Made by a program: the position numbers and the translations under genes
In this document: one piece after another, positions 1 through 64,000 of the stretch
Layout of the letters: the number at the start of each line of letters is the position of its first letter
Numbering within the stretch: position 1 is the first letter of the stretch
Notes under the pieces: model-generated
The model's input: the letters and a program-made list of their open reading frames with translations, nothing else
What the model was told of the DNA's origin: nothing
Database searches by the model: none
Assembly: GCA_038064975.1 (NCBI GenBank)
Contig: JBBTRX010000007.1
Span: 59,026-123,025 of the forward strand
Direction: 5' to 3'
DNA: 64,000 nt
DNA from: Patescibacteria group bacterium
GTDB lineage: Bacteria > Patescibacteriota > Minisyncoccia > UBA6257 > 1-14-0-10-40-38

Positions 1-254
1 AAAAACTTCATTGATGTCTGGAGCTACTTGGGCTGTTAAATTTTCGCGCGGAACAAAAGAAAGGTGTTCCCATCCGCGAAAAAAGAAAAAAGAAAATCCT
101 GCAATAAAAATCGCAAGAAAAAGAAAAAATGGCGCGAGAGGATGATTCTTCTGCATTGCCTTCAGTATATACGCATATTTATATTTGCCTCATATAAAAT
201 TGTTAATAACTTAGTAACTGAATACTATTTCTCGCTTGATTCCTAGTATTTATA

Positions 255-287
255 GAAAACAAAATAAAAACTCCACACAAGGTGGAA
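255..287 (-). terminator. Rho-independent terminator after a tRNA-fragment relic
   Basis: Minus-strand hairpin CCACCUUGUGUGG followed by a U-run (plus-strand A-run 256-270). Confidence 0.5.
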
Positions 288-296
288 TTTTTATTT

Positions 297-350
297 TGCT
301 CCCGAGCCAGGCCTGCCTGCCGGCAGGCAGGCAGGGATCGCCTCTCATTC
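297..350 (-). pseudogene. Degenerate 3' fragment of tRNA-Asn with a 24-nt palindromic insertion
   Basis: Minus strand reads GAGAGGCGA-UCCCUG-[CCUGCCUGCCGGCAGGCAGGCCUG]-GCUCGGGAGCAAAAU. The last 15 nt match the 3' end of the intact tRNA at 871-885. The variable loop and T-arm 5' half are missing. No 5' half is found upstream. Confidence 0.45.
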
Positions 351-829
351 AGTAGAATGACCTACTGGGTCGATCTTCTGACCTCGAAACCTTCAGCTCC
401 TCCTCGGAGCTTGCGGCCCGCGGTTCGATTCCTAACACAGGAAATTTTCAAACCCTGTCTTGTACGGGGTTTTAAAATTTACTCCCTCTGTTGGATACGT
501 TTAGAACTATGCAGTGGATTAAAATAGCTAATGAATTAGAAGTATCTGGTTTTGTATAAAAAAGGAGACCGCCGTCGATACAGAACGGAAGACCACCGTT
601 ATTTTCCGGGACGGCTTGCGAATGTTGCCTTGAGGTTATGACTAGACTCTAACAACTAAAAGAACCCCGACAACGATAGCAGCGACCGCAGAAATTACCT
701 GTGAATACTTAAACGGAAAAAAATGACTGATACCGAAAGCGAGAAAAAACACAACTTCTGCAATGGTAAGTATTGACATCGAATATGATCAATTAAATTT
801 AATGAACGACCTTTTATTCATTCTAACAA

Positions 830-858
830 AGAAAAATAAAACACCCCAGCACGTGGGG
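830..858 (-). terminator. Rho-independent terminator after tRNA-Asn
   Basis: Minus-strand hairpin CCCCACGUGCUGGGG followed by UGUUUUAUUUUU. Confidence 0.6.
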
Positions 859-908
859 TATTCTATTTTGCTCCCGAGCCAGGGATCGAACCTGGGACCG
901 TCGCCTTA

Positions 909-1459
909 CACTTGTCCTACTATTACTAATAGGGGTGGACTATATCATCGCCCATGAAGGGCGCGAGGTACTTCGCCTGCATCAATTAATATTTGATCGG
1001 CTACTCCCTTGCGGGATAGTCTCTACACCTTCTCTGATTACTATCAGAGCTTGGCTCGGGATTGCCCTTGGAAAGGGGTTTCCCCGAATTCACCTCGTTT
1101 GCAACCTAGATTGCTCTAGGAGGCTGCGTTATGCCGGCTTCCACTTCGCGATGACAATTGGCGCATATCAGGATACATTTATCGAGTTCTGATCTCACCC
1201 TCTCCCATGATCTGGTATAACCTTTATCTCCTACGCCGAAATCTTTTTCAGCTGGATTCAGGTGGTGAAAATCAAGAGCTCCTTGATATTTTTCGTATCC
1301 GCATATCTGGCATTGCCCGCCTTTGTAGGCAATAGCCATTGTTTTGATTTTGCGCCGGCGTTTTGCCACTGCACGAATAAGTTCTTCTCGCCGATCGGCA
1401 TATGTCCGCTTGTCAGCCATATATGGTAATTTTACCATTTTATAAGCCAAAGCGTGTTC
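909..1459 (-). mobile_element. Group I intron (551 nt) in the tRNA-Asn anticodon loop, with an HNH homing-endonuclease ORF
   Basis: It lies between U35 and U36 of the tRNA and ends with a 3'-terminal G. About 200 nt of ORF-free sequence at 909-1105 is long enough for a catalytic core. Confidence 0.6.
1106..1450 (-). CDS. HNH homing endonuclease (intron-encoded)
   Basis: Translation has CQICGY...HHLNP...CANCH, an HNH/zinc-finger nuclease motif. The ORF starts 9 nt inside the intron. Confidence 0.7.
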   Translation of the reverse strand: MAYKMVKLPYMADKRTYADRREELIRAVAKRRRKIKTMAIAYKGGQCQICGYEKYQGALDFHHLNPAEKDFGVGDKGYTRSWERVRSELDKCILICANCHREVEAGITQPPRAI

Positions 1460-1559
1460 ACAGGGCGCCGCTCTACCGCTGAGCTACTCGGGAATATTGA
1501 GTTATAGGCTGTTTTGTAAACAGCGTTACTATTATAATGAACTATACTTAAATCGCAAT

Positions 1560-1838
1560 ATGTTCAAACACATTAACGTTTCAATCATCGGGGATGTCCA
1601 GGGAGTATTTTTCCGCCGGACGGTCAAGCACGAGGCGAGCCGGCAAGGCATTAGTGGCTTTATTCGGAACGAGCAGGATGGAACGGTATACATGGAAGCT
1701 GAAGGACCAGAAGAAATCATTGATATTTTTTCGGCGTGGCTCAAGAGCGGAGCTGGCGAAGGAACACACGCGATTAAAACTATTGATATCGTAGATGGAT
1801 CATTCAAGGCATTTGAAGGATTTGAGATTAAAGAATAA
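1560..1838 (+). CDS. acyP: Acylphosphatase
   Basis: VQGVFFRR and GFIRNEQDGTVYMEAEG motifs. Internal Met start is in frame with ORF 1497..1838. Confidence 0.75.
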   Translation: MFKHINVSIIGDVQGVFFRRTVKHEASRQGISGFIRNEQDGTVYMEAEGPEEIIDIFSAWLKSGAGEGTHAIKTIDIVDGSFKAFEGFEIKE

Positions 1839-1874
1839 GAAGCTTCGCCGCAGGCCTGGCTTGGAAGCCAATAC

Positions 1875-2609
1875 ATGAAGAACCCTCTTATCATAATCGC
1901 GATTGTAATCCTCGTTATCGTTGCCTATGATGCGATTCGGATATTTTTTCTATCTCAAAAAACGGCGACTTTAGAGCAATCCCCTTTTAATCGCAAGATC
2001 AGAAACGCCATATTTAGGATCCTGGTGCTGGGCGATAGCACGGCTGTAGGGATAGGAGCCGAGAGGCCCGAGGACTCGACTGCAGGCAGGCTTGCTCAAC
2101 TGTATCCTGGCGCTGAAGTTATAAACCTTGCTATGAGCGGACAGCGCATTTCAGGTCTTGAGGAAATTTTAGCAAAAAGAGAAGATGAGCATTTTGATAT
2201 CGTACTTATACAAATAGGAGCAAATGACATTATACGACTGACCTCGATGGAAGATATTGAGTCGGGAATCGAGAGTATACTTACAAGGAGCAAGAAGTTT
2301 GGTGGCAAGATTATCTTTCTTCATTCTGGCAACGTTGGAGATGCAAAATTTTTTCCTTGGTATGTGCGGCCCATTCTTTCAAAGAGAAGTTTACAGGTCC
2401 GAGATATATATAAAAGAAAAGCTTCCGTGCACGGGGTCCTGTACGTTGACCTCATTGACTCTCAGGTTTCAGAAAAATTCAAAGAGAGTCCTGATCTATA
2501 CTATGCAAGCGATTTATTGCACCTCTCAAGTGAAGGATATGCTCTCTGGTATGAAGAAATAGCAAATAAACTCCAGGCGGACGGTAATGAAAGCGGCCGA
2601 GAGCAATAG
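1875..2609 (+). CDS. SGNH/GDSL-family hydrolase with N-terminal TM anchor
   Basis: VLGDSTAVGIG (GDS block) and C-terminal DLLHLSSEGY (DxxH block). Confidence 0.65.
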   Translation: MKNPLIIIAIVILVIVAYDAIRIFFLSQKTATLEQSPFNRKIRNAIFRILVLGDSTAVGIGAERPEDSTAGRLAQLYPGAEVINLAMSGQRISGLEEILAKREDEHFDIVLIQIGANDIIRLTSMEDIESGIESILTRSKKFGGKIIFLHSGNVGDAKFFPWYVRPILSKRSLQVRDIYKRKASVHGVLYVDLIDSQVSEKFKESPDLYYASDLLHLSSEGYALWYEEIANKLQADGNESGREQ

Positions 2610-2623
2610 CACGAAACTGATAT

Positions 2624-3043
2624 ATGGCAGAATTAAAAACAAAAGCTACAAAAGAAAGTGTTACAAGATTTTTGAATTCTATCGAACCTAAAGAAAAACG
2701 ATCCGACAGCTTTGTCCTCGTTGGACTGTTTCAAAAAATTACAGGCGAAAAGCCAGTTATGTGGGGGTCAAGTATAGTAGGTTTTGGAACGTATCACTAT
2801 CAGTCGGAAAGAAGCACGCAGAAAGGCGACTGGCCTTTGGCAGCATTTTCGCCGCGAAAACAAAGTCTGACGCTGTATGTTATGGAGGGTAATAAAGATA
2901 GTCAAGAATTATTTAAAAAATTAGGGAAATATAAAACAAGTCTTGCTTGTCTATATATTAATAAACTTTCTGATGTAAACCAAAAAGTACTTATAACACT
3001 TATCAAAAAATCATTTCAATATATGCAGAAGGTTCATAAATAA
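2624..3043 (+). CDS. DUF1801 (YdhG-like) domain protein
   Basis: Size and conserved-block pattern resemble DUF1801. The adjacent YdeI-like partner is the commonly seen pairing. Confidence 0.4.
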   Translation: MAELKTKATKESVTRFLNSIEPKEKRSDSFVLVGLFQKITGEKPVMWGSSIVGFGTYHYQSERSTQKGDWPLAAFSPRKQSLTLYVMEGNKDSQELFKKLGKYKTSLACLYINKLSDVNQKVLITLIKKSFQYMQKVHK

Positions 3044-3051
3044 TAATCCTC

Positions 3052-3303
3052 ATGGATCCCAACCCAACCAAAAAAGGCTCGGTCCACAAACTGCCGACGG
3101 ATTTACGAAAGGCTATTACTTCTTCTTCGGCAGCGCGAACACTATGGGAGGATATTACACCACTTGCACGTAATGAATGGATCTGCTGGGTCATCTCCGG
3201 CAAAAAAGCGGAGACGAGAAATATCCGTATAGAGAAAGCACTTTCAAAGCTTAAAGGCGGAATGCGTAGGCCTTGCTGTTGGGCCGGTTGCCCCCATCGT
3301 TAA
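3052..3303 (+). CDS. YdeI/OmpD-associated family protein
   Basis: LPTDLRKAI...WICWVISGKKAETRNIRIEKALSKL matches the YdeI/OmdA pattern. Confidence 0.55.
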   Translation: MDPNPTKKGSVHKLPTDLRKAITSSSAARTLWEDITPLARNEWICWVISGKKAETRNIRIEKALSKLKGGMRRPCCWAGCPHR

Positions 3304-3343
3304 AAATAGAATTGTTGTATGTAGAAAAAACCGACGCGAATTT

Positions 3344-6300
3344 TTAAGGAATAACGTTGTAAAACGAATGAATGCTGTTTTGTGTTTCTGCGTCTACTAT
3401 GCCGGTTTCGGATAATTTATTTTTCTTTTGGAAACGAATCACTGCCTGGCGCGTCAGATTGCCATAGTACCCGCTCACCGTTCCCTCGGGATAGATAATT
3501 TTATTTTGCGCCAAATACAGTTGAAGGAGCATTACGTCCTCACCGGAGGAACCCACTAGTAATACCCGTGAGAATGGCTTATCGGTAAGTCCTCCCCCTT
3601 TGCACCCTAATGTATTCATATACATTCGTGTTGAAGCGCCAAAAATTCCCGTCCCCCCTCCTGCAGGAATACCAACCGGAATAAGGATTTCTGTCGCATG
3701 CGTATTTTGAAGTTCTTTTAAAGCAGCTGCAGTTAGTGAACCGAAGAACGTTGTCTCCTTACCCGACGATCCTGTACCAGAAGAAGCTATGATGAATCCT
3801 TGTGCATTTAAACATTGTTGGAGAACTTTCACATCGTTTCCTGTATCCCCCGTTCGCAAACTACGTGTAAATGTAAACGAACCTCCGGCACTTTTAGTCG
3901 TCGCATCAATGACGTTTGAATATTCAGAATCTCCCGCACTGTTGTATGCGCGAATGCGAAAGTAGTACTTCGTGTTAGCGGTAAGACTTTTCTCGTTCCA
4001 GAAATAATAATGCGGCGGCAAGTCGCGGATTTGCGCGAAGTTCGTTCCATTAGTACTCATTTCAAGCTTATATCCCGTTTGCCCTTCCGAACCGCCTTTC
4101 CAAAACAAGCGAATCTCGTTTTCTGAAATAGCATAAGCAGTCACGTTACTCGGTGACTCCGAAAGAATTGAGTTTACGGGCGGAGGAAGCAAAGCTGTGT
4201 CGCAATTTTGAGTAGGAGTGAACGCCACTATTTCCGAATACGCTTGCGCTGCGGAATAGAGCACGCGCACGGAATACGATTGCCCGCTTACCAATACGAG
4301 CGGCTGGGTTATCACCGTCGGCACGAAGCCCTGAGGCACAATCGCCACGAGCGTCCCTGCCGGAACAAATTTATACCAAAAGCCATTCACCCAATTTCCA
4401 TCAGTATCAATATCAACATAAAATCCTTGCGCGCCAGAGGATCCGTTTTCTAGCCATGAAACTGTTGCTTCCGTTGCGCTTCCGGAACAGAACGTGGACA
4501 CCGTGGGCGGAGAGAGTGGATCTCCCGGTGGCGGAGGTGGTGGAGGTGGTGGTGACGGAGCGCTATCGTTGTCTAATAGAGTAACTGTCCCCGTATTTGA
4601 AGAACTGGTTGTATACCCAGCGCTTGGCACAATCATTACCGTCACGCTTTCCGTATTCTCAACATTCACATCATTAATCGGAATGACATCAACTAAAACA
4701 GATGATTGATTGGCAGCAATCACAGGTGAAGTAATAATTGTCTGATAGTCCACACCATTCGTTGCTGTTCCACTAATGGAAATGACGATAGGCAGAGCGT
4801 TTGCAGTGCTTCCTGTGCGCGAAATAGTGAATAGTCCGGTATCCGAGCCAGCTTCTGATGCAGTCGCGTCTGTTGTAGAGATAGAAACAGCCGGTAAAGA
4901 AACCGCTGTTTCAAATCCAGAGCGAATGTAATTGTTTACGTTTGCTGCAGTATACGCATCATTCCAATTCCCTTTTGATTGTTGGAGAGCTCCAGTAATA
5001 AACGCGCTGTAAGTCCCCACTCCGCCTATGCTTGCGTTATACGTTGCAACGGAACGCATTGGGTCCAAGTAGGTTTGCTTCAACACTCCTGACGTAGTAT
5101 CTCCCACTTGGTTTTTCCAAAAGCCAAGCGTTTGAAGTGTTTGGTTTATCGTCGTCCACTTTGTAGCGCCACTATCGGGAGTACTAGAATAAAAAGTATT
5201 ATTACTACTATTAAATTCGCTAAAGCCACCAGACTGCTGATGGTCAAGATGGGGAGTAGTTAAAGAAGAATGTTGGAAATTGTTTCCGCTCAGGGAAATA
5301 TTAGTGACTCGCGGAGCTACACCATCAATCTGCAGGCCGCCACCCCATTCATAGATCGTATTATTCTGAAGAGCGAGATTATGAATACCAAAATCCAATT
5401 GACCATTCTCGCCTTTATGCATCCCTTGCATCGCGATGGCAACGGGCTGCGTACCTAGTACGTTGTTTGCGATGATATTATCCGCGATAGTTCCGGAACT
5501 CACGTTTGAGATAACCATTCCCCATCCACGCTTCTCTGAGGAGTTAATATTTTTTCCATCCAGAATAACATTATCTTGAATATCAATCATTACCCCATTT
5601 GCCGCTGGACTATTACCTCCACCTGCAACAAATGCAATACTATTTCGAACAAAAAGATTATTTTCTATCACGCCGCCCGAACGCATTTGTGCGCCATGAG
5701 AAGATCCGTCCGCTATAATGTTTCCGCGCAAGATGACGCCCGAGTTGCCGTTATCAATATAAATATTATGGCTAAAGATATCCGCACCGGCACCCGCAAC
5801 CGTTTCGCTCCAGCCATTGTGATAAAAAACATTTTCTTCCATCAACAAACCCTGCACGTCATATGCATACATTCCCTGTGAGCTTCCGTTCACCGAATGC
5901 ACGGTATAAGAATTCAGGATGACCGAGCGCCTCAATGTATAATTTTGAAGACTTCCGCCAAAACCCTGAAAAACAATGCCGGTACGATATCCTTCAATTT
6001 TGAAGTCTTCAAAAAGAATATTAGAACCAGGTTGCAGGAAAGACACTCCAGCCTCATTACCATTTGCTCCATCATAGGTATCGGCTAAAAAATGTAATCC
6101 CGTAAAAGCGACATTAGTAATAGTAGGCGGAGAGCCGCCTCCGTTATTAGTCCACACTGCCCCTCCAGTACCAGTCTTAAGCAAAGGCCGCACTGAACTC
6201 ACGCCATAGGAAGATATGAGCATTGGCTCTGATGCAGATCTTCCGGACATTTTCCATTGCCCGAGCGATTCATTAAAAACATCTCCTCTTTTCAGTAACA

Positions 6301-6586
6301 GCCCATCAGGATAGCCATGTCGCAACAAGGATTTACCTGCGCTGATTGTCTTTTTTGCCGTTCCTTCGCTTAACCCATCATTTGTATCGCTTCCCGTAGA
6401 TGAGCTCACATACACAACTCTTGTGTCCGCGCTCGGAGAAAATTCTGTCCATCCGGAACCGGACGACGAACCTAATTGAGCGAGAAGCACCTCATTGCCA
6501 TTTGGAAAACTAGAAACGTAAGTACTATAGAGAAAGGCCACGACACCGATTATGGCTACGAATGTTAAATTTTTCCGGTTAACCAT
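3344..6586 (-). CDS. Large secreted/surface protein: parallel beta-helix, Calx-beta-like, poly-Pro linker, FN3, two C-terminal peptidoglycan-binding (PG_binding_1) domains
   Basis: N-terminal TM/signal. Beta-helix repeats (NNIIANNV, NNLFVRN, Gly/Asn ladders). Calx-beta-like LFTISRTGSTANALPIVISISGTATNGVDYQ. PPPPPPPPPG linker. FN3 (YAISENEIRLFWKG...YYFRIRAYNSAGDSEYS). Two PG-binding repeats (DVKVLQQCLNAQGF; DVMLLQLYLAQNKI...LTRQAVIRFQ). Confidence 0.65.
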   Translation of the reverse strand: MVNRKNLTFVAIIGVVAFLYSTYVSSFPNGNEVLLAQLGSSSGSGWTEFSPSADTRVVYVSSSTGSDTNDGLSEGTAKKTISAGKSLLRHGYPDGLLLKRGDVFNESLGQWKMSGRSASEPMLISSYGVSSVRPLLKTGTGGAVWTNNGGGSPPTITNVAFTGLHFLADTYDGANGNEAGVSFLQPGSNILFEDFKIEGYRTGIVFQGFGGSLQNYTLRRSVILNSYTVHSVNGSSQGMYAYDVQGLLMEENVFYHNGWSETVAGAGADIFSHNIYIDNGNSGVILRGNIIADGSSHGAQMRSGGVIENNLFVRNSIAFVAGGGNSPAANGVMIDIQDNVILDGKNINSSEKRGWGMVISNVSSGTIADNIIANNVLGTQPVAIAMQGMHKGENGQLDFGIHNLALQNNTIYEWGGGLQIDGVAPRVTNISLSGNNFQHSSLTTPHLDHQQSGGFSEFNSSNNTFYSSTPDSGATKWTTINQTLQTLGFWKNQVGDTTSGVLKQTYLDPMRSVATYNASIGGVGTYSAFITGALQQSKGNWNDAYTAANVNNYIRSGFETAVSLPAVSISTTDATASEAGSDTGLFTISRTGSTANALPIVISISGTATNGVDYQTIITSPVIAANQSSVLVDVIPINDVNVENTESVTVMIVPSAGYTTSSSNTGTVTLLDNDSAPSPPPPPPPPPGDPLSPPTVSTFCSGSATEATVSWLENGSSGAQGFYVDIDTDGNWVNGFWYKFVPAGTLVAIVPQGFVPTVITQPLVLVSGQSYSVRVLYSAAQAYSEIVAFTPTQNCDTALLPPPVNSILSESPSNVTAYAISENEIRLFWKGGSEGQTGYKLEMSTNGTNFAQIRDLPPHYYFWNEKSLTANTKYYFRIRAYNSAGDSEYSNVIDATTKSAGGSFTFTRSLRTGDTGNDVKVLQQCLNAQGFIIASSGTGSSGKETTFFGSLTAAALKELQNTHATEILIPVGIPAGGGTGIFGASTRMYMNTLGCKGGGLTDKPFSRVLLVGSSGEDVMLLQLYLAQNKIIYPEGTVSGYYGNLTRQAVIRFQKKNKLSETGIVDAETQNSIHSFYNVIP

Positions 6587-6749
6587 AAATAGATGTGAGA
6601 GAATTCGAGGACGCTTGTCGTTTCTACCAGCATAACTCTTATCTATCGCTTTCCATATTTTTAATATGCACAGTTATGAATATTCGTTTCACGTCGGAAA
6701 AATATGTATAATAAAACATATGAGTAACCACACTAATCAAGGAGGAAAT

Positions 6750-6896
6750 ATGGTTTATTGTTTAGGGCTTATCGGCGCTCTCATTTATTTTATCGGTCAA
6801 GCAACAACATTTTGGATGGGAGTTATAGGAGCTTTGAAAGCTTTGGTATGGCCTGCATTTTTTGTGTATTATGCGTTGGATTTCTTATTTAAGTAA
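6750..6896 (+). CDS. Small 2-TM membrane protein (hypothetical)
   Basis: AAGGAGG Shine-Dalgarno at 6739-6745, 5 nt before the ATG. Two hydrophobic helices. Confidence 0.5.
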   Translation: MVYCLGLIGALIYFIGQATTFWMGVIGALKALVWPAFFVYYALDFLFK

Positions 6897-6902
6897 CTCT
6901 CC

Positions 6903-7445
6903 CTATCTCATCTGCTTCTCTTTACTATCCACTACGCTAATTATTGTTGATGGTTTTCCGTTCAGTTCTCCCTTATCAATAATGAATGATACATTTGCGC
7001 CAAAGTATTTTTTTGCTTCTTCAATAGTTTTCGCCGGCGGCTCACCCTCCAGGTTTGCGCTTGGAGCAACGATGGGGCCCGTTTCCCGCAGGAATTCAAT
7101 AAGCCATTTTTGTTTAGGTAAACGGAAAGCGATACTTCCGGTTCCCCTATGCAGATATGAAAAAGATTTGCTCTCGCACGGTACAACGATACTTACCGGT
7201 CCAGGCCAATATTTTTTAAAAATTTCTTTGGTTACTGCATCAGGTTTAATATTGAACTTTTCTATATCACTCTCTGTACTGATTAATACAATGAGAGGCT
7301 TACGCGAATCTCTTTTCTTAAGCTGATAGATCCGTTCAACTGCCGAAGGTGAAAACGCAGAACAAACCAGACCGTAGATCGTGTCGGTCGGGATAACTCC
7401 AATTTCTCCATTTTTAATCAGTTCAACCTCTTTGCTGTATTCCAT
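6903..7445 (-). CDS. tsaC: L-threonylcarbamoyladenylate synthase (YrdC/Sua5 family)
   Basis: GVIPTDTIYGL and SANLEGEPP motifs; about 180 aa YrdC-type length. Confidence 0.8.
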   Translation of the reverse strand: MEYSKEVELIKNGEIGVIPTDTIYGLVCSAFSPSAVERIYQLKKRDSRKPLIVLISTESDIEKFNIKPDAVTKEIFKKYWPGPVSIVVPCESKSFSYLHRGTGSIAFRLPKQKWLIEFLRETGPIVAPSANLEGEPPAKTIEEAKKYFGANVSFIIDKGELNGKPSTIISVVDSKEKQMR

Positions 7446-8114
7446 ATATATAGCGATCCTAGCAAAGCAATCTATGTGGCGTCTACTGGGGAGTTCTAAT
7501 TCCGTAAGTATTTGGTGTTAGAATTTTTTAAGCGGATATGATACTTTCAAATTAGTTCCCCCACCACTGTACAACCAGGAGCATAGCGATGTGCGGAAGA
7601 GACAATGATGTAGTCGAGCGTCGCTGTAGCGTTTGCCATCAAACGTATTATGGAAGTTTGGGACACATAGGTTGTCCCGCTCAAAGGAGGAAAAACCCCC
7701 AACAAGCGGCGGAACAAGAGCAAGGACTATCAGTTCTCGAAATCGATGAAGCCCTCGATAAGGCGGTGAGGAGAGTCACTGGACCACCCCATCATCACTA
7801 GTCTTCTCAGTTTTCTCAATGAGCACCTGGCTGACCATGTGCTCTTTTTTTTATCTTCACAGATTTTTTATCTTTCATTGGTAATCTTTAATTCATGAAA
7901 ACAGTTACCACAATTCTCATTGTTGTAATAGTACTCGGTTTCGGATATTGGCTTTTTAGCCGTTATCTCGTCTCCAAACTAGACGGCAGTGGAGTTCGTA
8001 TTGAACAAATACGGACATATGTTTAGTAACTGCCTTCTCTAGGGAAATATATCAAGAAGATAAAATTCACGGCCGATTCACTCGTTAAGAGCTATACATT
8101 GAAGACCTAGGATC

Positions 8115-8984
8115 ATGAACAGGATCTTCCATCATCGGTTATTCTTCCCCATAGCACTTATCGTGCTTGTTGCTGTTTATTCTCTTGTCGTGTGGGGACC
8201 GGCCTTGGGAGAGCAATCAGATCCGCCATCTTTTCCAGCAAATATTGCGGAAAAGCAGGAAGACGACTCAATCACTATTCCATCTACTCCAAAACCAGTA
8301 CTTTTCCGCTACGTAGAAATTATAGATAGCTGTGGGCCCCATTATAATGGAGCCTGCGTTAATATGCGTTCCGGACCCGGAGAAACCTATCCCGTCGTTA
8401 GCAAACTCCGTACTGGCATGGTGCTGAAAGTTAAAGACAGCGTTACCACAGAAGGAGGTAAGACCTGGTACGAACTTCTACCCGATGATCATGTACGCTA
8501 TCCGGAACGGGTAACGTCAGATTGGTATGTCTCCGCTGAGGTCGTGCGCGTATTTTATGATGACGGAAGTCATACGCTTCAACGAGGAGGAACCGGATCA
8601 ACGATCGTAAAAACTATCGTTATCAATCGTTCTCTTCAAGAGCTCTACGCGTATGAAAATGGAACTTTAGTAATGCAAATACCTATTTCCACCGGAAAGG
8701 AATTTACTCCCACTCCTCGCGGCACATTTACGGTATACAAGATGACACCGAGCCGCTACATGCAGGGCCCATTGCCTGGCATCAGCGATCAGTACTACGA
8801 CTTGCCCGGCGTCCCTTGGAATCTGTACTTTACGAACGGCGGCGCAGCTATTCACGGCGCGTATTGGCACGATAATTTTGGGCAACCTTGGTCACACGGA
8901 TGCGTCAATCTTCCGCTTGACAAAGCGAAAGAACTTTACCTTTGGGCTGAAGCTGGCATGTCCGTGACGGTGAAAGATTCATGA
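8115..8984 (+). CDS. L,D-transpeptidase (YkuD domain) with SH3b-like domain
   Basis: Signal/TM. SH3_3-like block (YNGACVNMRSGPGETYPVVSKLRTGMVLKV). C-terminal HGAYWHDNFGQPWSHGCVNL catalytic His/Cys. Confidence 0.7.
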   Translation: MNRIFHHRLFFPIALIVLVAVYSLVVWGPALGEQSDPPSFPANIAEKQEDDSITIPSTPKPVLFRYVEIIDSCGPHYNGACVNMRSGPGETYPVVSKLRTGMVLKVKDSVTTEGGKTWYELLPDDHVRYPERVTSDWYVSAEVVRVFYDDGSHTLQRGGTGSTIVKTIVINRSLQELYAYENGTLVMQIPISTGKEFTPTPRGTFTVYKMTPSRYMQGPLPGISDQYYDLPGVPWNLYFTNGGAAIHGAYWHDNFGQPWSHGCVNLPLDKAKELYLWAEAGMSVTVKDS

Positions 8985-9024
8985 AGAAACTTGCTCATAA
9001 TTTCTACATGTGAAAGCATGATGA

Positions 9025-9768
9025 ATGCTATCATTTATCATCGCAATATTCACACTTTTAGGTACAATATTTCCCACTCCAGTTCCCGCACAAAGTATCC
9101 CCGTTCCTGCAACTCAAACTATAACAACTTCGTCTACTTCTACTCCGACTATCCCCGTCTCTCCATCTCAAAAAATATCAGCTTCCTCCACGACTCCTCC
9201 CGTTTCAACCACACCACAGCCCATTCCAGTAAAAAAGATTACATCGGGAACGCCCTCTACGAGCACTGTTCCTCATGTGCCATTTTATTCCCAATTTAAA
9301 GACATTACTTCCGTAGAATGGAAAAAAGTTGGATGCGGTATTGCGAGCTTAGCGATGGTATTGGATTACTATAAGCCCGCAGTTTCCGTAAATACCCTAC
9401 TCCAACAAGGCATTGATTCAGGAGCATATTTGAAAAATGCCGGCTGGACCTACAAAGGCTTGATTGGCGTAGCAAAAAGACACGGTTTAGATGGCACAAG
9501 TTATGACCTTGGGAAATCAGGCAAAGCGATAGCGTTTGAACAATTCAAAAAACAACTCGCGAATGGTCCCGTTATCGCATCGGTACATTATAAGTTTGAT
9601 CCGCAGAGTACCATTCCCCACCTCGTGGTTATTAATGGTATGAGTGGTGACTCGGTCTACTACAATGATCCGGCTGCAAACGGCGGGGAAAAGATAATTT
9701 CTTCCGATACATTCCTCAAAGCTTGGAAAAAAAGATTTATCGTTATACGGCCGGTAGATAAGGTTTAG
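9025..9768 (+). CDS. Secreted peptidase C39-like (C39_2) domain protein
   Basis: Signal peptide, Ser/Thr/Pro-rich linker, then VGCGIASLAMVLDYY (Cys) ... HLVVINGM (His) ... YYNDP. Confidence 0.6.
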   Translation: MLSFIIAIFTLLGTIFPTPVPAQSIPVPATQTITTSSTSTPTIPVSPSQKISASSTTPPVSTTPQPIPVKKITSGTPSTSTVPHVPFYSQFKDITSVEWKKVGCGIASLAMVLDYYKPAVSVNTLLQQGIDSGAYLKNAGWTYKGLIGVAKRHGLDGTSYDLGKSGKAIAFEQFKKQLANGPVIASVHYKFDPQSTIPHLVVINGMSGDSVYYNDPAANGGEKIISSDTFLKAWKKRFIVIRPVDKV

Positions 9769-9818
9769 TGATTAATCTTCATTAATACTTTAGATACCAA
9801 CATGCTAGTATTTTAGTA

Positions 9819-10679
9819 ATGAAGAACAGTATTGGATTAGCTATATTTTCTGCACTTATCTTTTTTTCTTATACCACCGTATCAGCAATTGATTCGGCTT
9901 CTATTATTATTTCTCCCGTGACGGTTATCCAGGGAGAGCCGATACTGATAGCTGTTTCAAATGCAGATGCGTCTGAAGTACAGAAGATTTCGTTTGATAC
10001 TGTTTCGCTCGGCATTTTTACGTATCAGAATAAGCCCACTGCAATCGTGGGAATAGATCTTTATAAAAAGCCAGGGACGTATCCCGTTTTAGTTACGTTA
10101 GCCGATGGCCAGATTCTTGAAACGAAAGTTATTGTAGGTACACGAGAAAAGATAGAAGCGCCACTTGGCATTCCAGAAAAGCTCGGCGGAAATACTCCTG
10201 CAAGCCAGACTAAGCTCGTCACTTCCCTTGCCGCGGAAAACAAAAGTTTGGTAAAGCTCCGCACCGGAACAAAATCATTTTGGAAGGAAGCGTTCAGATT
10301 TCCACTCAAAGAAATCACGATTACGGACGACTATGGCTACTCCAGAACAACCGGAGCATATTCCATAGCTCACAAAGGCACTGATTTTCGCGCGAAGGAA
10401 GGCACAGCAATCAAGGCTATTAATCGTGGCGTGGTCCGCGTCGCGAAAGAATATCGGAACTACGGCAAGACGGTCGTCGTAGATCATGGACTAGGCCTAA
10501 CTTCCCTCTACATGCATCTTTCTAAAATCAAAGTAAACGTTGGCGAGCTTGTTTTGCCTGGACAAGTTATTGGTCTCAGCGGAAAGACGGGCTATGCCAC
10601 GAGTCCACATCTCCACCTTAGCGTGCGCCTCAACGATATTTCCATTGACCCGCTAAAGTTTTTTGAGCTTTTTAAATAA
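9819..10679 (+). CDS. M23 (LytM-type) peptidoglycan endopeptidase
   Basis: HKGTDFRAKEGTAI ... DHGLGLTSLYMHL ... SPHLHLSV: HxxxD and HxH zinc-ligand blocks. N-terminal signal. Confidence 0.8.
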   Translation: MKNSIGLAIFSALIFFSYTTVSAIDSASIIISPVTVIQGEPILIAVSNADASEVQKISFDTVSLGIFTYQNKPTAIVGIDLYKKPGTYPVLVTLADGQILETKVIVGTREKIEAPLGIPEKLGGNTPASQTKLVTSLAAENKSLVKLRTGTKSFWKEAFRFPLKEITITDDYGYSRTTGAYSIAHKGTDFRAKEGTAIKAINRGVVRVAKEYRNYGKTVVVDHGLGLTSLYMHLSKIKVNVGELVLPGQVIGLSGKTGYATSPHLHLSVRLNDISIDPLKFFELFK

Positions 10680-10823
10680 ATTTCGTATTTTTTTCTTCTT
10701 GCAGGAAACGCGGATACTTTTTTGACGAGCTTTTAAATGTTATCCACTTATTTTGAAATTATTTTTCTAGTACCCATGGTATTCTATTTTTAGTACTCAC
10801 CCAACGTACCGGAGGAGGTATGT

Positions 10824-11099
10824 ATGGCACAACAAGAACCCCTTTCCGTTCCGAGAGAATTGGAACAGGCAATAGAGCAATTGAAATGCCATTCACATAT
10901 TTCCGAAGTTGTTCGCGGGGTCTCTGTAAACTGTCTTCATCATCATAGGTCAGGTACCGTAGTATTTGAAAGAGAAAATCCCTACGGAATACGCGCGAGC
11001 GCGTACACAGAAAACAGAGTCTTGACGCTCTATCTGCACGTAGAACACTCGCATCGAGAAGAGATCAAACGATTCCTTTCGACGCTTACGCACGGATAG
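10824..11099 (+). CDS. Hypothetical His/Cys-rich protein in a GC-rich islet
   Basis: SD GGAGGAGG 5 nt upstream. CHSH/CLHHH/HVEHSH clusters. Followed by a terminator. Confidence 0.45.
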   Translation: MAQQEPLSVPRELEQAIEQLKCHSHISEVVRGVSVNCLHHHRSGTVVFERENPYGIRASAYTENRVLTLYLHVEHSHREEIKRFLSTLTHG

Positions 11100-11106
11100 C
11101 TGTGAG

Positions 11107-11140
11107 CCGCCACGCCCTTCGGGACGGAGGCGGTTTTTTA
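11107..11140 (+). terminator. Rho-independent terminator
   Basis: GCCGCCACGCCCTTCGGGACGGAGGCGG followed by TTTTTTA. Confidence 0.6.
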
Positions 11141-11151
11141 TTGTAGAAATA

Positions 11152-11179
11152 TTGACAATCCATAGTATTCTGCTATAAT
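11152..11179 (+). promoter_or_regulatory. Consensus sigma70-type promoter
   Basis: TTGACA (11152-11157), 16-nt spacer, TATAAT (11174-11179), about 50 nt upstream of the GTG start at 11230. Confidence 0.55.
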
Positions 11180-11229
11180 TTGCAACGGATCATTTTTACC
11201 CCCCAATACTTCAACGAGGAGAACTACAG

Positions 11230-11577
11230 GTGCAAAATCTCGGCGAACTACTCAAGGAAGCCGGCGTTCCAGGAGCCAGAGCAAAAACTGCGAAACCCCT
11301 GGAAAACGTACCTAAAGTGACTAGTCAAGAACTCGCGCAGATGACTGGCGGGAACTTTAATCTCGTGAGTGCGTCTGCGAGTCTTTTCCTGTCCTTTCCT
11401 GTGGACACTCGGGGCCGGTACATAGGTGCCTTTTGCCGAAACACGCCGGACGGGAAAAAGGGCCATGAGTTGTGGCTTGAATTCGAAACTCGCCAGCGTC
11501 GCAGTCCAGTGAAGCCCTATGTCTTCACGAATTTCGGGAGAGAAGTCCTCGCCGACGCAGGCTATCCGGTGGAGTGA
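11230..11577 (+). CDS. Hypothetical protein (GTG start) in a GC-rich islet
   Basis: GAGGAG SD 6 nt upstream of the GTG. Stop overlaps the next start (GTGA). Confidence 0.45.
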   Translation: MQNLGELLKEAGVPGARAKTAKPLENVPKVTSQELAQMTGGNFNLVSASASLFLSFPVDTRGRYIGAFCRNTPDGKKGHELWLEFETRQRRSPVKPYVFTNFGREVLADAGYPVE

Positions 11578-11789
11578 ATTCCTACAGAAAGGCAACCGTG
11601 CTACACAAGCGCACGACGGACTCGACTCAAGCAGCAGCTAACATCGCCGATCGTGAATACGATGTTGCGTGGAGAGATGCCGCATATCAAAAACAGGTAT
11701 ACGGTTTCACCTCCATCGACCCCGATGAAACATGGACGCACGTCTATCACGAAGTTCTGCAAGAACTCGTGGGATACTGCCCTTCCTGA
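11574..11789 (+). CDS. Hypothetical protein, translationally coupled to the upstream ORF
   Basis: GTGA start/stop overlap. Followed by a strong terminator. Confidence 0.4.
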   Translation: MNSYRKATVLHKRTTDSTQAAANIADREYDVAWRDAAYQKQVYGFTSIDPDETWTHVYHEVLQELVGYCPS

Positions 11790-11796
11790 TTCCCTT

Positions 11797-11840
11797 GCGC
11801 CGCCAATCCCTTACCGGATAGGCGGCGCTTCTTTTTTATT
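11797..11840 (+). terminator. Rho-independent terminator
   Basis: GCGCCGCC...GGCGGCGC followed by TTCTTTTTTATTTT. Confidence 0.6.
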
Positions 11841-11933
11841 TTCTAATGTAAATTAAATGTCCATCGCACTTTACTAAGTCACGATGTCTTCGTCGCTCCT
11901 CGCTCCTTGAGAAGTGCGTGGTACACTAGATTT

Positions 11934-12218
11934 ATGGACCAACTTATGAAAGCAGATATTTTCTTTTTTATATCTTCTATAGCAACTGTTGTGCTTACAG
12001 CGCTAGTTTCTATTCTTCTTTTCTATCTTATTAAAGCCGGAAAAAATCTTTCTGAACTTTCAGAGGTACTGAAAGGTAATATAAAAGAATCAAAAGAATT
12101 TATTCAAGATCTTAAGGAACGCTTAGAAGACAATATTGTATTTCGGCTCTTTTTTCCTTCACCACGGAAAAGAAAAGAAACTTCAGCGAAAAATCATAAA
12201 GGAAAGAGCAATACTTAA
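11934..12218 (+). CDS. Small membrane protein (hypothetical)
   Basis: One long hydrophobic helix then a charged coiled-coil-like tail. Start site uncertain (ORF opens at 11907). Confidence 0.4.
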   Translation: MDQLMKADIFFFISSIATVVLTALVSILLFYLIKAGKNLSELSEVLKGNIKESKEFIQDLKERLEDNIVFRLFFPSPRKRKETSAKNHKGKSNT

Positions 12219-12245
12219 CTATTACTCATAATTTTAAAAAAACCT

Positions 12246-12635
12246 ATGCCAAAGAAAACTACAGCAAACGGTGGTGGAAATGTAGCACTCATGGGAGCAA
12301 CGCTCGCGGGAATCGCGGCAACGGCTTATTTCTTCCTCGGGCCGAAGGGAAAGAAACACCAAAAACAAGCAAAGGCTTGGGCGATAAAGATGAAAGGCGA
12401 AGTTGTAGAAAAGCTGGAACGTGCTAGAGAAGTCAGCGAACCGATTTACCACCAAATCATTGATACGGTTGCAGCAAAGTATGGTGAAGAAAAGGATGCT
12501 AACCGTAATGAAATACGCGAATTAACAGAGGATTTAAAAAAACATTGGAAAACCTTAAGCGGCAAAGCGGGTGCCGTAAAGCACAAGGTAGTACGAGGCG
12601 CGAAGAAAGCTACGGCGAAAGTGACAAAAGAATAG
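12246..12635 (+). CDS. YtxH-like (DUF948) protein
   Basis: N-terminal MGATLAGIAATAYFFLGPKGKK followed by charged helices, typical of the YtxH family. Confidence 0.55.
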   Translation: MPKKTTANGGGNVALMGATLAGIAATAYFFLGPKGKKHQKQAKAWAIKMKGEVVEKLERAREVSEPIYHQIIDTVAAKYGEEKDANRNEIRELTEDLKKHWKTLSGKAGAVKHKVVRGAKKATAKVTKE

Positions 12636-13438
12636 GCGTGGAATCGCAATAGAAAAATGCCATCGTATGATGGCATTTTTCTTGCAAGAATCTAGTACAA
12701 CGCTCCGCCACTCTAGTTTTGGCTGCCGCTGTTGCTTCCGCTATTACTGCCGTCGTTGCTTCCGCCTGGCAAGTTCAGATCCACGTTAATATCGTTTGTC
12801 CCGTCATTGGGGGTCGTATCCGCGCGAACCGCAAACCACCAAACTCCGAATCCTACGAGAAGAAGGAGTACGATTACTATAAGGATAGTATTGGTACTGG
12901 ACACATTGTTATTCTCTTCCATGGTAATGTAATGGTTTTTTAATAGATATCGACCACTAATTCAGATATCTGAACGTTTTTCCCTAGCTTTTATAATGCG
13001 CCTAGGCGCATTAAGATGCTGTGAATTTCAAATAATAAAGAATGGACAATGAATAATAAAAATTAGCTGAAGTTAATATTTTTTGTTATGCTTCATTATA
13101 AGTTAATCCTTTTTCTACGATCATAAATATTATGAAATCAAGCTTTACTCCTTCCATCTTGAGCGTCATCCCGTTAGAAATTTTGTCCCACTCGCCATAT
13201 ACTATATCTATGAATCACCATAAATATAAACCAGCCCTACGGGGACTATTTCTAACGAAATGAGCAAACACAATAAAGACCAGTTCAATAATCCTGTTTC
13301 AAAAAAAGATATTGAAATGAAAAATATGCATCGCACGGTAGCCGCACGTTTGAATCCTGACGCGCATAGCTTTAATTTGAAACCCGTACGCAAACCAAAA
13401 GCGAGCGGTAAAAAAGGAAATAGATAACTCCCACTTAA

Positions 13439-13470
13439 AAGACCGCAAGATTCACTCAGCGGTCTTTTTT
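13439..13470. terminator. Bidirectional hairpin terminator
   Basis: AAAAGACCGCAAGATTCACTCAGCGGTCTTTTTTG. Confidence 0.5.
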
Positions 13471-13489
13471 GTATAGCCAGTAGTAATAC

Positions 13490-13518
13490 TTGACATTATT
13501 ACTATTGTATGCTATTAT
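13490..13518 (+). promoter_or_regulatory. Sigma70-type promoter for the 13566 gene
   Basis: TTGACA, 17-nt spacer, TATTAT. AGGAGGTG SD before the GTG at 13566. Confidence 0.5.
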
Positions 13519-13565
13519 TAAAGAGTTAGAAACTCCCCAAAACAAGCCTAGAAAGGAGGTGCGGA

Positions 13566-14147
13566 GTGAGCACTTTAACAATCGCAGGTTGCATCATTGG
13601 CCTTTCGGTCTATGTGCCTCTCTGCATTCAAGTTCTCTCAGGCAGAGCAAAACTCAATTTTGCCACCTGGATACTGTTCGCGATCCTCGATGGCATCACT
13701 GCGGGTGCAATCTACTACGCAGGAGGTAGCTACTTTCTACCAGCAGCCTATACTCTCGGAAGCCTGGTAACGTCGGTATGCGTTCTGAAATCCAAGAATT
13801 TCTCGTGGACGCGGTTCGAGACGATGGTCACGTTTCTCGTAGTCACGTGTCTCGTTGTCTGGATCATCTCTGGTCCGACCGTTGCTACAGTAGCAGGGAC
13901 AACAGCAGTTGCGATCGCCTGCATTCCTCAGTTCATCGATACTTATCGAGAACCGTGGAAGAGTCCCCTTTTGAGCTGGAGCGGATTTATGATCGCGAAT
14001 GCTCTTGTTACTGCAGGCGGCGCGGAATGGTCCATTGAAGAGAGACTTTACCCAGCGGTCTGCACGTTGCTTACGACCGCAGTCGTCCTTCTCACTGTCC
14101 GGCGGTACTGGACGAAAGAGCCTTCCACTATGGAATCAAACATCTAG
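13566..14147 (+). CDS. PQ-loop repeat family membrane protein
   Basis: Six or seven TM helices. Two loop motifs (PLCIQVLSG and CIPQFIDTYR) resemble duplicated PQ-loop signatures. Confidence 0.45.
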   Translation: MSTLTIAGCIIGLSVYVPLCIQVLSGRAKLNFATWILFAILDGITAGAIYYAGGSYFLPAAYTLGSLVTSVCVLKSKNFSWTRFETMVTFLVVTCLVVWIISGPTVATVAGTTAVAIACIPQFIDTYREPWKSPLLSWSGFMIANALVTAGGAEWSIEERLYPAVCTLLTTAVVLLTVRRYWTKEPSTMESNI

Positions 14148-14169
14148 AGTTACTCGCTCTGTACACTGA

Positions 14170-14212
14170 ACGAGCAGGAGCCCACTACTTCGGTCGCGGG
14201 CTCCTTTCTTTT
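14170..14212 (+). terminator. Rho-independent terminator
   Basis: GGAGCCCACTACTTCGGTCGCGGGCTCC followed by TTTCTTTTTTAT. Confidence 0.6.
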
Positions 14213-14253
14213 TTATATATTATTTGACAGTTATCCTCCTAAGCAGTAATTTT

Positions 14254-14904
14254 ATGCCAGATCCTCTCATCTTTCTCCAGTCCTTAACTCAAGGAGTTTC
14301 CGTGGACGCCTATCGCAAAAACGCACTACTCTCCGTTTACGACAAAGAAGGCATCGTAGAATTCGCCTGGGGACTCATTGATTTGGGATGGAATCTGTTT
14401 AGTTCAGGTGGAACTGCCAAAGTTCTCCAAGAAGCCGGTCTCGCCGTCACTGACATCGGTACCATTGTAGGACCGCCTATTCTCGGTCACCGTGTTGTCA
14501 CGCTCTCACGAGAACTCCATGCCGGACTTCTCGCGCGGAACACGCCGGAAGACCTTGCTGAACTTCAGCGGATCGGCGCGCCATACTTTGACCTTGTTTG
14601 CGTGGACCTGTATCCGCTTCAAGCGGAAACGGAACGTGAAGGGGCAACCATGGAAAGCGTGATTGAGAAAACCGACATCGGCGGACCGACTCTTCTTCGT
14701 TCTGGCGCAAAAGGTCGGCGTCTCGTCATTTCAAATCGTGAATCGCGAGAACTTGTCCTTCGACACCTTCAGGAAGGTACCGGCGACGATCCCGACCTTC
14801 GCCATATGTTTGCAATGGAAGCCGAACGGTTGGTCTCACGTTACTGTGATATCTCAGTACGATTTCTCGACTCTCACTTCGAGACCCTTCCTTCGGTTTC
14901 CTGA
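14254..14904 (+). CDS. Stand-alone MGS-like domain protein resembling the IMP-cyclohydrolase half of PurH
   Basis: ALLSVYDKEGIVEFAWGLIDLGWNLFSSGGTAKVLQEAGL...DLVCVDLYP...IEKTDIGGPTLLRSGAKG parallels the PurH N-terminal domain. No AICAR-transformylase half follows. Confidence 0.55.
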   Translation: MPDPLIFLQSLTQGVSVDAYRKNALLSVYDKEGIVEFAWGLIDLGWNLFSSGGTAKVLQEAGLAVTDIGTIVGPPILGHRVVTLSRELHAGLLARNTPEDLAELQRIGAPYFDLVCVDLYPLQAETEREGATMESVIEKTDIGGPTLLRSGAKGRRLVISNRESRELVLRHLQEGTGDDPDLRHMFAMEAERLVSRYCDISVRFLDSHFETLPSVS

Positions 14905-14960
14905 AAGGAAACACGCTCCGCCCCCCCGCACGACCCCTCGGTCGTGCGGCTTTTTTATTC
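14905..14960 (+). terminator. Rho-independent terminator
   Basis: CCGCACGACCCCTCGGTCGTGCGG followed by CTTTTTTATT. Confidence 0.6.
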
Positions 14961-62880: not shown

Positions 62881-63165
62881 TTACCTAACTATGAGTGCTT
62901 GCCTTACAGTTGCCCCAATCTTACGCGGTCCGACAAATGCCGAACTGACGCATCGTGACTTTAAGGCTCCACGACGAACACCTTCAAATGAAAATGAATC
63001 GACACCGACTATTCTCTTTAAAAAAGAAGAATAATCAAAGTTTAATTGATCCACGAGCAGCTTCCGCTACCCGTGCCTTGTTACGACTTAGCCCTTGTCA
63101 CCGAACCTACCCTAATCCAGCAAGCTGAACTTTAGGTATTCCCGGCTTCCTTGACTTGACGGGCG

Positions 63166-63700
63166 AATATTTTCTCAAAAACTGAGAATGAATGTTCCCA
63201 CTGCACAGACGGATTTCCCGTATGCAGCGAGCTCAATGCATCGTTTGCTTTAATGTGAGCAAGCTTTGTAAGCCTGAGTCGGTAAGATGTTCCCCTTCTT
63301 TGATTGCATCCATAATTTCGCAGAAAACTTTGAAATCATGCCTCTTAGATGGAAAACGTAACGGATATTTCTTGAAAAACGGAATAATAATGTTTTCCAA
63401 GTCTTTCCGATTAGCGACTTCAAACCGGTAGCAATGCTGGTGATTTTTTCTACTATCTTTCTGGAAATATACATTTCCACACTGGAAAAAATCTTTTACA
63501 GCATCAAGGACTGTCTTGTCTTTTTCTACCAGCTTGATATAGAACCGTGGTTCTATTCTTGCTCGCCTGATTCGTTCCGTAGATTCATTGATATTGCGAA
63601 CATACGCAGTAAAGCTTCCTTCGCCATCAACTAATCCAACGATATAATCAGGATTAAACATTGTATTGAGTGAGGGCCTTCTTCCGACCTTATATCGGAA
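63166..63700 (-). mobile_element. Intron-like insertion (probable group I intron) in 16S near E. coli position ~1395; 5' boundary uncertain
   Basis: Canonical 16S sequence resumes at CGCCCGUCA (plus 63165 downward). The insertion contains a complete LAGLIDADG ORF. Confidence 0.5.
63233..63661 (-). CDS. LAGLIDADG homing endonuclease (single-motif, I-CreI-like size)
   Basis: N-terminal YIVGLVDGEGSF LAGLIDADG motif; 142 aa. Confidence 0.75.
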   Translation of the reverse strand: MFNPDYIVGLVDGEGSFTAYVRNINESTERIRRARIEPRFYIKLVEKDKTVLDAVKDFFQCGNVYFQKDSRKNHQHCYRFEVANRKDLENIIIPFFKKYPLRFPSKRHDFKVFCEIMDAIKEGEHLTDSGLQSLLTLKQTMH

Positions 63701-64000
63701 TACTATGCCTCAGCTGACTTCTGACGCTGCGTTAGTTTTTATGATACCACGGCATCTTGCCATGGACAGCCATCAGATCTCCACAGGTCACGTAATATAC
63801 TATTCCAAACATCCGAGACGAACCTTTTCCCGTGATCTTCCTTATCCTCACCGCCCACTGATAAGTCGATCGATTCTCCGCGTGTTGCGGATACGTCTTG
63901 GCTGTTTTTTGCCGACAGATCCTCCATCTCGCCCCTTCACAGAGGCGGACTATCTTTGGCTACGCTCCGACTAGACTTCATCGGAGGAGTGGATTCAAAC

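Follow-up and report, generated by a model that had tools for sequence, protein, structure and literature searches.

A probable horizontally acquired islet of small genes in a Patescibacteria genome contains a member of a rare family of predicted helical proteins

The DNA analysed here, referred to as the window, is a stretch of 64,000 nucleotides from a Patescibacteria group bacterium (assembly GCA_038064975.1, contig JBBTRX010000007.1). At positions 10811–11840 it contains three small open reading frames (ORFs), named A, B and C, which a preliminary description made from the letters alone had singled out as a GC-rich islet and a likely toxin-antitoxin or defence/anti-defence module. As far as the evidence goes, the three hypothetical genes form an acquired islet, ORF B encodes a protein newly recognised as a member of a family, and the findings do not add up to a new defence or toxin system. 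The explanation we prefer, to which we give about an even chance, sees here two autonomous transcription units that recently arrived as an islet, with B from a mobile family of small helical proteins, in a genome of the Parcubacteria/Paceibacterota type that lacks Shine-Dalgarno (SD) signals.

The architecture of the islet was much as first described. ORF A (10824–11099, +) has an ATG start, encodes 91 amino acids and forms a single-gene unit. ORF B (11230–11577, +; 115 amino acids) and ORF C (11574–11789, +; 71 amino acids) both have GTG starts and form a second unit, in which the stop of B and the start of C share the letters GTGA; this 4-nt overlap is consistent with translational coupling. 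The three lengths were borne out by the ORF listing, and the division into one single gene and one coupled pair by the overlap and the signals. Upstream of B the sigma-70 promoter TTGACA-16-(TGc)TATAAT was located at 11152–11179 (+), with a match to the consensus at 12 of 12 positions and a TG ahead of the −10 element; it is the single perfect match in the window, where 0.04 were expected. The GC-rich hairpin terminator proposed for each unit was also confirmed, for unit 1 at 11104–11142 (+; hairpin 11104–11136, −19.2 kcal/mol) and for unit 2 at 11797–11842 (+; hairpin 11797–11828, −24.1 kcal/mol), both followed by a T-run. ORF A is preceded by the SD GGAGGAGG (10811–10818, +), 5 nt ahead of its ATG, and ORF B by the SD GAGGAG (11216–11221, +), 8 nt ahead of its GTG.

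These SDs have no counterpart in the host. The 3′ end of the 16S rRNA, at 63052–63166 (−) of the window, reads GGAUCAAUUAAAC past helix 45 and not GGAUCACCUCCUUA, and the anti-SD core CCUCC is absent. The anti-SD motif is reported to have been lost in about half of Parcubacteria (PMC9297842). Among the native long ORFs an SD-like motif (GGAG, GAGG or AGGA at −18 to −5) was present in 2 of 32, at or below chance; A and T dominate the native leaders, and ATG is the start codon of nearly all native genes. As the 16S rRNA has no anti-SD and the native genes have no SD, neither the SDs of A and B nor the use of GTG as start codon in B and C is of the host type, and both would fit an SD-using donor. 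The strong SDs of A and B therefore tie A to the B–C pair despite the ordinary GC content at third codon positions (GC3) of A. GC and GC3, codon scores under a host model, SDs and GTG starts agree, and this concordance of sequence features points to a recent horizontal acquisition of A, B and C, in line with the earlier suggestion. SD-led genes in an anti-SD-less genome could serve as a simple marker of recent import in these lineages, and as a natural test of the translation of foreign mRNA there.

The composition of the islet was less uniform than had been claimed. Its GC content of 50.4% compares with a window mean of 43.3% (standard deviation 2.8, 1030-nt windows), and 0.9% of equal-sized windows are as GC-high; the segment 13921–14950 tops it with 52.3%. 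The excess is confined to approx. 11200–11800, that is, to ORFs B and C, with GC3 values of 0.56 (z = 3.2) and 0.54 (z = 2.7) against the host genes. The trinucleotide deviation of B and C together ranks in the top 0.8% of the window. ORF A has a GC content of 46% and a host-like GC3 of 0.435 (z = 0.45), and because of this ordinary GC3 there is no uniform islet of three GC-rich genes. We concluded that the GC islet is real but modest and was overstated: it is a GC-rich gene pair next to a codon-atypical, compositionally ordinary A. The expected deviation in GC was thus found for B and C and not for A.

A second, stronger compositional outlier was noticed at 13555–14950 (+), with a GC content of 52% and the top trinucleotide deviation of the window. 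Within it lie the gene for a membrane protein of 193 aa and an MGS-like ORF of 226 aa, and the gene of the 193-aa protein has GGAGG 6 nt ahead of a GTG start, as in the islet genes. This segment may be another import.

Coding potential was scored with a 3-periodic Markov model trained on 33 long ORFs of the window. Under this host-trained model A, B and C reached −2.2, −1.1 and −0.6, compared with +0.9 to +3.0 for native small genes. Each of the three scored best of the six frames in its annotated frame, by 3–4 units in the case of A and C, whereas B outscored its antisense frame by <1 unit (−1.07 vs −1.82). That antisense frame holds a 115-aa ORF (11248–11595, −), which mirrors B with a nearly equal codon score and was rejected as a shadow ORF, because the homologues of B support the + strand.

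The public gene calls differ over the islet. GenBank lists A as MEK7612424.1 (AAB407_03725) and C as MEK7612425.1 (AAB407_03730); the two locus tags are consecutive, so that B has no GenBank entry. The window belongs to a metagenome-assembled genome from Hainich groundwater. Over a length of 12.9 kb it shows 100% identity to an ENA contig from well H51 at that site, and the gene calls made on this contig include none of A, B and C, whereas the Prokaryotic Genome Annotation Pipeline (PGAP) called A and C and skipped B. Single-nucleotide polymorphisms in a 579-nt ENA contig came from a coverage of 1 and are uninformative on population variation.

An exhaustive phmmer search with B among 1.84 billion representatives returned 26 proteins at E <= 1e-3, 5 of them at E <= 1e-10. 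The best homologue (P0006; E 1.1e-14) shares 42% identity with B over residues 1–113, and its N-terminal MQNLGKILAEAG is matched by MQNLGELLKEAG at the N-terminus of B. The family was confirmed by tblastn in 14 further loci. It has a core of approx. 85 residues with the motif FCRNTPGGKKG..LW.EF…Y.F..FMREVLAEAGHP; the alignment consensus reads ...GIFCRNTPGGKKGExLWxEFxxRR......YxFxxFMREVLAEAGHP, and the motif can be written more generally as F-x-R-N-T-P-x-G-K-K-G-x-x-L-W-x-E-F ... R ... Y-x-F-x-x-F-x-x-E-V. Five columns are invariant (F68, P73, L81, R88 and F102) and eight are conserved at >= 90% (T72, G78, W82, F85, Y97, F99, E105 and V106); B keeps all 13. Given the 26 homologues and the conserved columns, B is a real gene overlooked by the annotations, missing from the public annotation of this metagenome-assembled genome (MAG) and probably from that of others. 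We concluded from the alignment that B is, by all indications, a genuine full-length member of a rare, unnamed family of small proteins that are predicted to be all-helical.

Neither word-indexed searches nor any of the curated libraries searched can see the family. A word-indexed search of 5.8 billion clusters gave nothing for B, and for A and C it gave each protein itself alone. Pfam, NCBIfam, PHROGs and PADLOC gave none for A, B and C apart from a sub-threshold DUF1949 match for A (E 0.068), and PDB sequence searches with A, C and the profile of B gave nothing meaningful. The earlier statement that the products belong to no recognisable family therefore stood for the curated libraries and was set aside for B by its 26 homologues. 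For the family members, Pfam gave nothing except an N-terminal cold-shock domain in four; a fifth fusion occurs in L019. One member is annotated as Candidatus Paceibacterota.

AlphaFold2 predicted six helices for B from the 26-sequence alignment, with a predicted local distance difference test score (pLDDT) of 93.7 and a predicted template-modelling score of 0.80. Foldseek searches with this model against solved and viral structures (PDB and BFVD) gave nothing at E <= 1e-3. A confident predicted structure with no solved or viral match, together with the cassette lifestyle described below, makes the family an inexpensive subject for studies of structure and function in the biology of the Candidate Phyla Radiation (CPR). 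The RNTPxGKKG segment forms the loop between helices 58–70 and 78–91 of the model. Across the family the B domain is mostly acidic, with an isoelectric point (pI) of about 5. The loop is basic on a mostly acidic domain, so that in the model it looks like a putative specific contact site and not like a general nucleic-acid surface.

A resemblance was also seen between residues 4–15 and 102–113 of B, where the N-terminal segment LGELLKEAGVPG resembles the C-terminal motif FGREVLADAGYP. It is present in B, P0006 and P0007, and these three may form a subfamily marked by a small internal repeat.

The genomic setting of the family was studied in 18 further loci (L013–L032). No neighbour protein was common to different loci apart from the B homologue itself. 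The neighbours differed by locus and included ribosomal proteins, RpoA, Hsp70/GrpE, SmpB, GreA, aminoacyl-tRNA synthetases, Dus, a UvrD-like helicase and MurG-like and M23 proteins. Typically the B-family gene stands alone on the + strand amid minus-strand neighbours. A promoter-like TTGnnn-N16-18-TAnnnT lies upstream in 10 of 15 loci, several times near consensus; most members have an SD-like motif ahead, and several are followed by a hairpin and T-run as read by eye, without folding.

The GC content of the B-family genes (0.557 +/- 0.041) is nearly unrelated to that of their contigs (0.34–0.57; r = 0.18, 16 loci), and in 13 of the 16 the gene exceeds its contig in GC (Wilcoxon p = 0.004). 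For loci with at least four long host ORFs, GC3 was compared with those ORFs and lay above them in the window (z = 3.8), L029 (3.5), L027 (3.3) and L024 (2.8); L016 and L030 showed no such excess. The sharpest contrast was found in L027 (6001–6366), where a gene with GC 0.54 and GC3 0.54 sits in a contig with GC 0.34 and host GC3 0.23, behind a perfect TTGACA-16-TATAAT promoter and the SD GAGGAGG. Housekeeping neighbours mostly have no SD in L024, L027 and L029, as in the window.

The closest homologue, P0006, lies on contig L032 (L013 extended, 1–14574), in a run of approx. 18 small, same-strand and often overlapping ORFs. SDs precede 11 of 17 genes there, PHROG matches are few, and the GC content of 54.5% equals that of B itself. 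The ORFs are almost without Pfam domains, the exceptions being a nucleoside 2-deoxyribosyltransferase-like protein and a WDGH-domain protein, and the run is followed by a 1725-aa ORF without domains. Judged by this gene array, L032 has the look of an unclassified phage. In IMG/VR, neither the three proteins A, B and C nor the family alignment found a match, and the B family was not found by tblastn in INPHARED phages and PLSDB plasmids.

Phage morons are independent units with their own promoter and intrinsic terminator, of a composition unlike the surroundings and amid unrelated genes. The islet resembles them in its own promoter and terminator, its deviant composition and its unrelated neighbours, and the closest homologue of B lies in a phage-like array. 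It differs from them in lying outside any recognisable prophage; no insertion scars were found, and no record with the family turned up in IMG/VR, INPHARED or PLSDB. Because of the autonomous units, a GC content unrelated to the host contig and the phage-like array, the family appears to spread like phage morons.

Cold-shock domains are fused to the B domain in at least five family members. Moreover, the Candidatus Paceibacterota locus L017 (775–1945) has a gene for a 242-aa B-family protein with a divergent cspA-type gene 254 nt upstream. The fusions and this csp neighbour suggest an auxiliary function that is connected with cold-shock proteins or RNA. The likeness to CspA-family (PF00313) proteins with accessory C-terminal domains consists in these fusions and the one csp neighbour, which suggest a pathway common to both domains. 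Unlike them, the B of the window has no cold-shock domain, the window has no csp gene, and the B domain is predicted to be helical and not an OB-fold.

ORFs A and C have a different standing. A is His-rich, with 9 His in 91 residues, as first noted; the description as Cys-rich failed, with 2 Cys. Its single-sequence AlphaFold2 model (pLDDT 46) was unusable. C is acidic (pI 5.4), whereas the B of the window is basic (pI 9.2). Comparison of A and C with the N-terminal extensions of longer B-family members gave nothing. We considered A as a degenerate cold-shock domain and rejected this, as Pfam gave no cold-shock match and hhalign against a cold-shock alignment (A4) gave a probability of 2.2%. 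That C might derive by divergence from the C-terminal half of the B domain (EVLQELVGYCP vs EVLADAGYP) found no support, with 0.7% in hhalign and a weak match in blastp alone. Lineage-specific orphan small proteins are abundant in CPR/Patescibacteria genomes. A and C are similar to them, being short, without detectable relatives or domains and located in a CPR MAG; the islet differs in having SDs and a codon usage unlike the host, and in that B belongs to a multi-genome family.

A possible relative of C was found once. In L025 (GCA_041476445.1; 1215–1732), between a Dus gene and a UvrD-like helicase gene, a 95-aa B homologue has a 71-aa ORF 15 nt behind it, and this ORF has the blocks ADRx6RDA and WxxΦYH in common with C. 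The match is weak (BLASTP pairwise E 0.019; Smith-Waterman shuffle z = 3.4, p about 0.008). No C-like ORF follows the B homologue in 12 of 13 loci, L025 being the one weak case, and no counterpart of A was found at B-family loci or in genomes with orthologues of the M23 peptidase that lies next to the islet. A and B–C did not occur together at any other locus examined. We concluded that the A–B–C trio is not a conserved module and that the B–C pair is conserved at most in a small subclade.

In our preferred explanation, two self-contained transcription units would have been acquired by a genome that itself had lost SD-based initiation. Unit 2 would be driven by the consensus promoter, with a first gene, B, that comes from the rare helical family. 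C would be a fast-evolving partner, translated by coupling to B, and A an independent His-rich protein that was acquired with or near B–C. The family would spread horizontally as promoter-gene-terminator cassettes among CPR genomes, possibly through phages. B itself may be a small protein with an accessory or binding role in processes that involve cold-shock proteins or RNA, and probably neither enzyme nor toxin. What the analysis establishes directly are the gene structures and signals, the signatures of foreignness, the place of B in its family and the changing context of that family; the route of transfer, expression in the host and all functional statements are what we infer here.

Several observations weigh against this explanation. 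The islet has no integrase, tRNA or convincing flanking repeats, and a close relative without it was not found among the genomes sampled, so that the insertion is deduced from composition and signals. The GC3 of A is host-like, and the strong promoter and high GC3 of the pair might instead mirror high expression. As no homologues of A and C turned up in the word-indexed search, their coding status depends on the frame-specific scores, the PGAP calls and the signals. The absence of B from IMG/VR, INPHARED and PLSDB leaves the phage route dependent on one phage-like contig. The link to cold shock consists of fusions and one adjacency, known from sequence alone, and the acidic domain argues against general nucleic-acid binding. 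Finally, in a host without an anti-SD, the SDs and GTG starts may mean poor translation, and the genes could be silent passengers.

The last point leads to the strongest competing explanation, in which the imported DNA is a decaying or silent passenger, barely translated and without function here, its ORFs would be intact by chance or because they arrived recently, and A and/or C are perhaps not genes. Because the host cannot use the SDs, we allow this a small but appreciable probability. It agrees with SDs that cannot pair with the host 16S rRNA, with GTG starts that are unusual here, with the negative coding scores under the host model, with the lack of homologues of A and C among 5.8 billion clusters, and with gene calls in which the ENA caller took none of the three ORFs and PGAP skipped B. 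Set against it are a full-length B with every invariant family residue kept, and a promoter, terminators and B–C coupling that are all intact. The annotated frame is also the best one for each ORF, by 3–4 units for A and C and by <1 unit for B, and the contig is identical in independent assemblies.

A bolder extension of our preferred explanation seems unlikely to us, though it deserves mention. The B family might be a new class of self-promoted mobile small genes in CPR bacteria and phages, with an unseen helical fold, whose products modulate the function of cold-shock proteins or RNA or else join C-like partners in a new kind of two-protein addiction or anti-defence pair; the copies with SDs in anti-SD-less hosts would then be very recent invasions.

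We consider it improbable that B and C form a toxin-antitoxin pair of type II, or an addiction or defence module of some other two-gene kind, in which one protein would poison the cell, its partner would neutralise it and the complex of both would autoregulate the strong promoter, with A as an unrelated neighbour. The pair does resemble type II toxin-antitoxin operons in its small overlapping genes (115 and 71 aa, 4-nt overlap), in one strong promoter of its own and a terminator, in a basic B (pI 9.2) and an acidic C (pI 5.4) and in its foreign composition; the 71-aa ORF with C-like blocks 15 nt past the B homologue in L025 could be counted in the same direction. However, that likeness is weak, and no toxin or antitoxin domain was detected in PADLOC (none at E <= 1), Pfam, NCBIfam or PHROGs. 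The predicted fold of B matched no known toxin or antitoxin structure searched. Moreover, conservation does not extend to the partner: at nearly every other locus the B homologue stands alone, with no C-like ORF downstream, and several homologues are fused to cold-shock or other domains, which makes B unlike a free-standing toxin. A defence-island context is also absent. With no library match, no such context and no conserved partner, the toxin-antitoxin or defence/anti-defence module proposed at first was not upheld.

An equally doubtful view takes A, B and C as native, highly expressed small proteins, whose GC3 and signals reflect selection for expression. The perfect promoter, the strong terminators, the near-consensus promoters of B-family genes elsewhere and the host-like GC3 of A would suit it. 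However, SDs are senseless as an adaptation where the 16S rRNA has no anti-SD and native genes have no SD; synteny or a homologue was absent in the ten nearest genomes sampled; and the GC content of the family is unrelated to that of the host contig across 16 loci (e.g. 0.54 vs 0.34). That the GC-rich kilobase is a structured non-coding RNA or regulatory element is hardly credible and, for B, effectively refuted: GC-rich segments of AT-richer genomes are often RNA genes and the gene callers disagree over the region, but Rfam gave noise only (E up to 10), the coding signal is frame-specific, and B shows protein-level conservation over 26 divergent clusters and a confident predicted fold.

The surroundings of the islet gave no hint of a mobile element. 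Upstream lie YkuD, C39 and M23 peptidases, and downstream small membrane or YtxH-like proteins, an MGS-like protein, CofD and a histidine kinase; Sua5 is also among the neighbours. No integrase domain or defence gene was found near the islet amid these cell-wall and housekeeping genes, no prophage genes were found around it, and a tRNA scan around it gave none. Rfam covariance models run over 10600–12000 identified no family, with sub-threshold noise at E >= 1.4 when values up to E 10 were allowed. A search for flanking direct repeats as insertion scars gave short AT-rich matches (D5) that were not convincing. Ten genomes with M23 orthologues (51–64% identity) had no downstream genes in common with the window and none of A, B and C, and an empty-site comparison was therefore impossible.

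Within the islet, the two units have two further sequence elements in common. The 12-mer CCATGGTATTCT (also given as CCATRGTATTCT) occurs at 10774–10785 (+), upstream of A, and again at 11160–11171, where it falls within the spacer of the B promoter; a post hoc count found no further copy within 64 kb. The copy upstream of A holds TGgTATTCT, an extended −10-like element, and the 12-mer may be a putative common operator or −10-like promoter element that links both units. The 5′ arms of the two terminators (11103–11119 and 11796–11812) agree at 14 of 17 positions, reading TGAGCCGCCACGCCCTT and TGCGCCGCCAATCCCTT; TTTTTTATT comes next after each, and they bracket the B–C unit. This likeness could reflect common origin, duplication or convergence.

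Matches to intron models lie near both ends of the window. A match to group II intron D1-D4 lies at 63675–63751 (−), approx. 500 nt upstream of the sole 16S fragment found (model positions 1390–1520), and no 23S rRNA gene was detected downstream of this fragment within the window. This suggests an intron or insertion that breaks the 16S gene near position 1390. A group I catalytic intron was matched over its full length at 916–1184 (−), with 59 bits and an E-value of 1.7e-12; the match lies far from the 16S fragment, and no rRNA or tRNA was detected around it.

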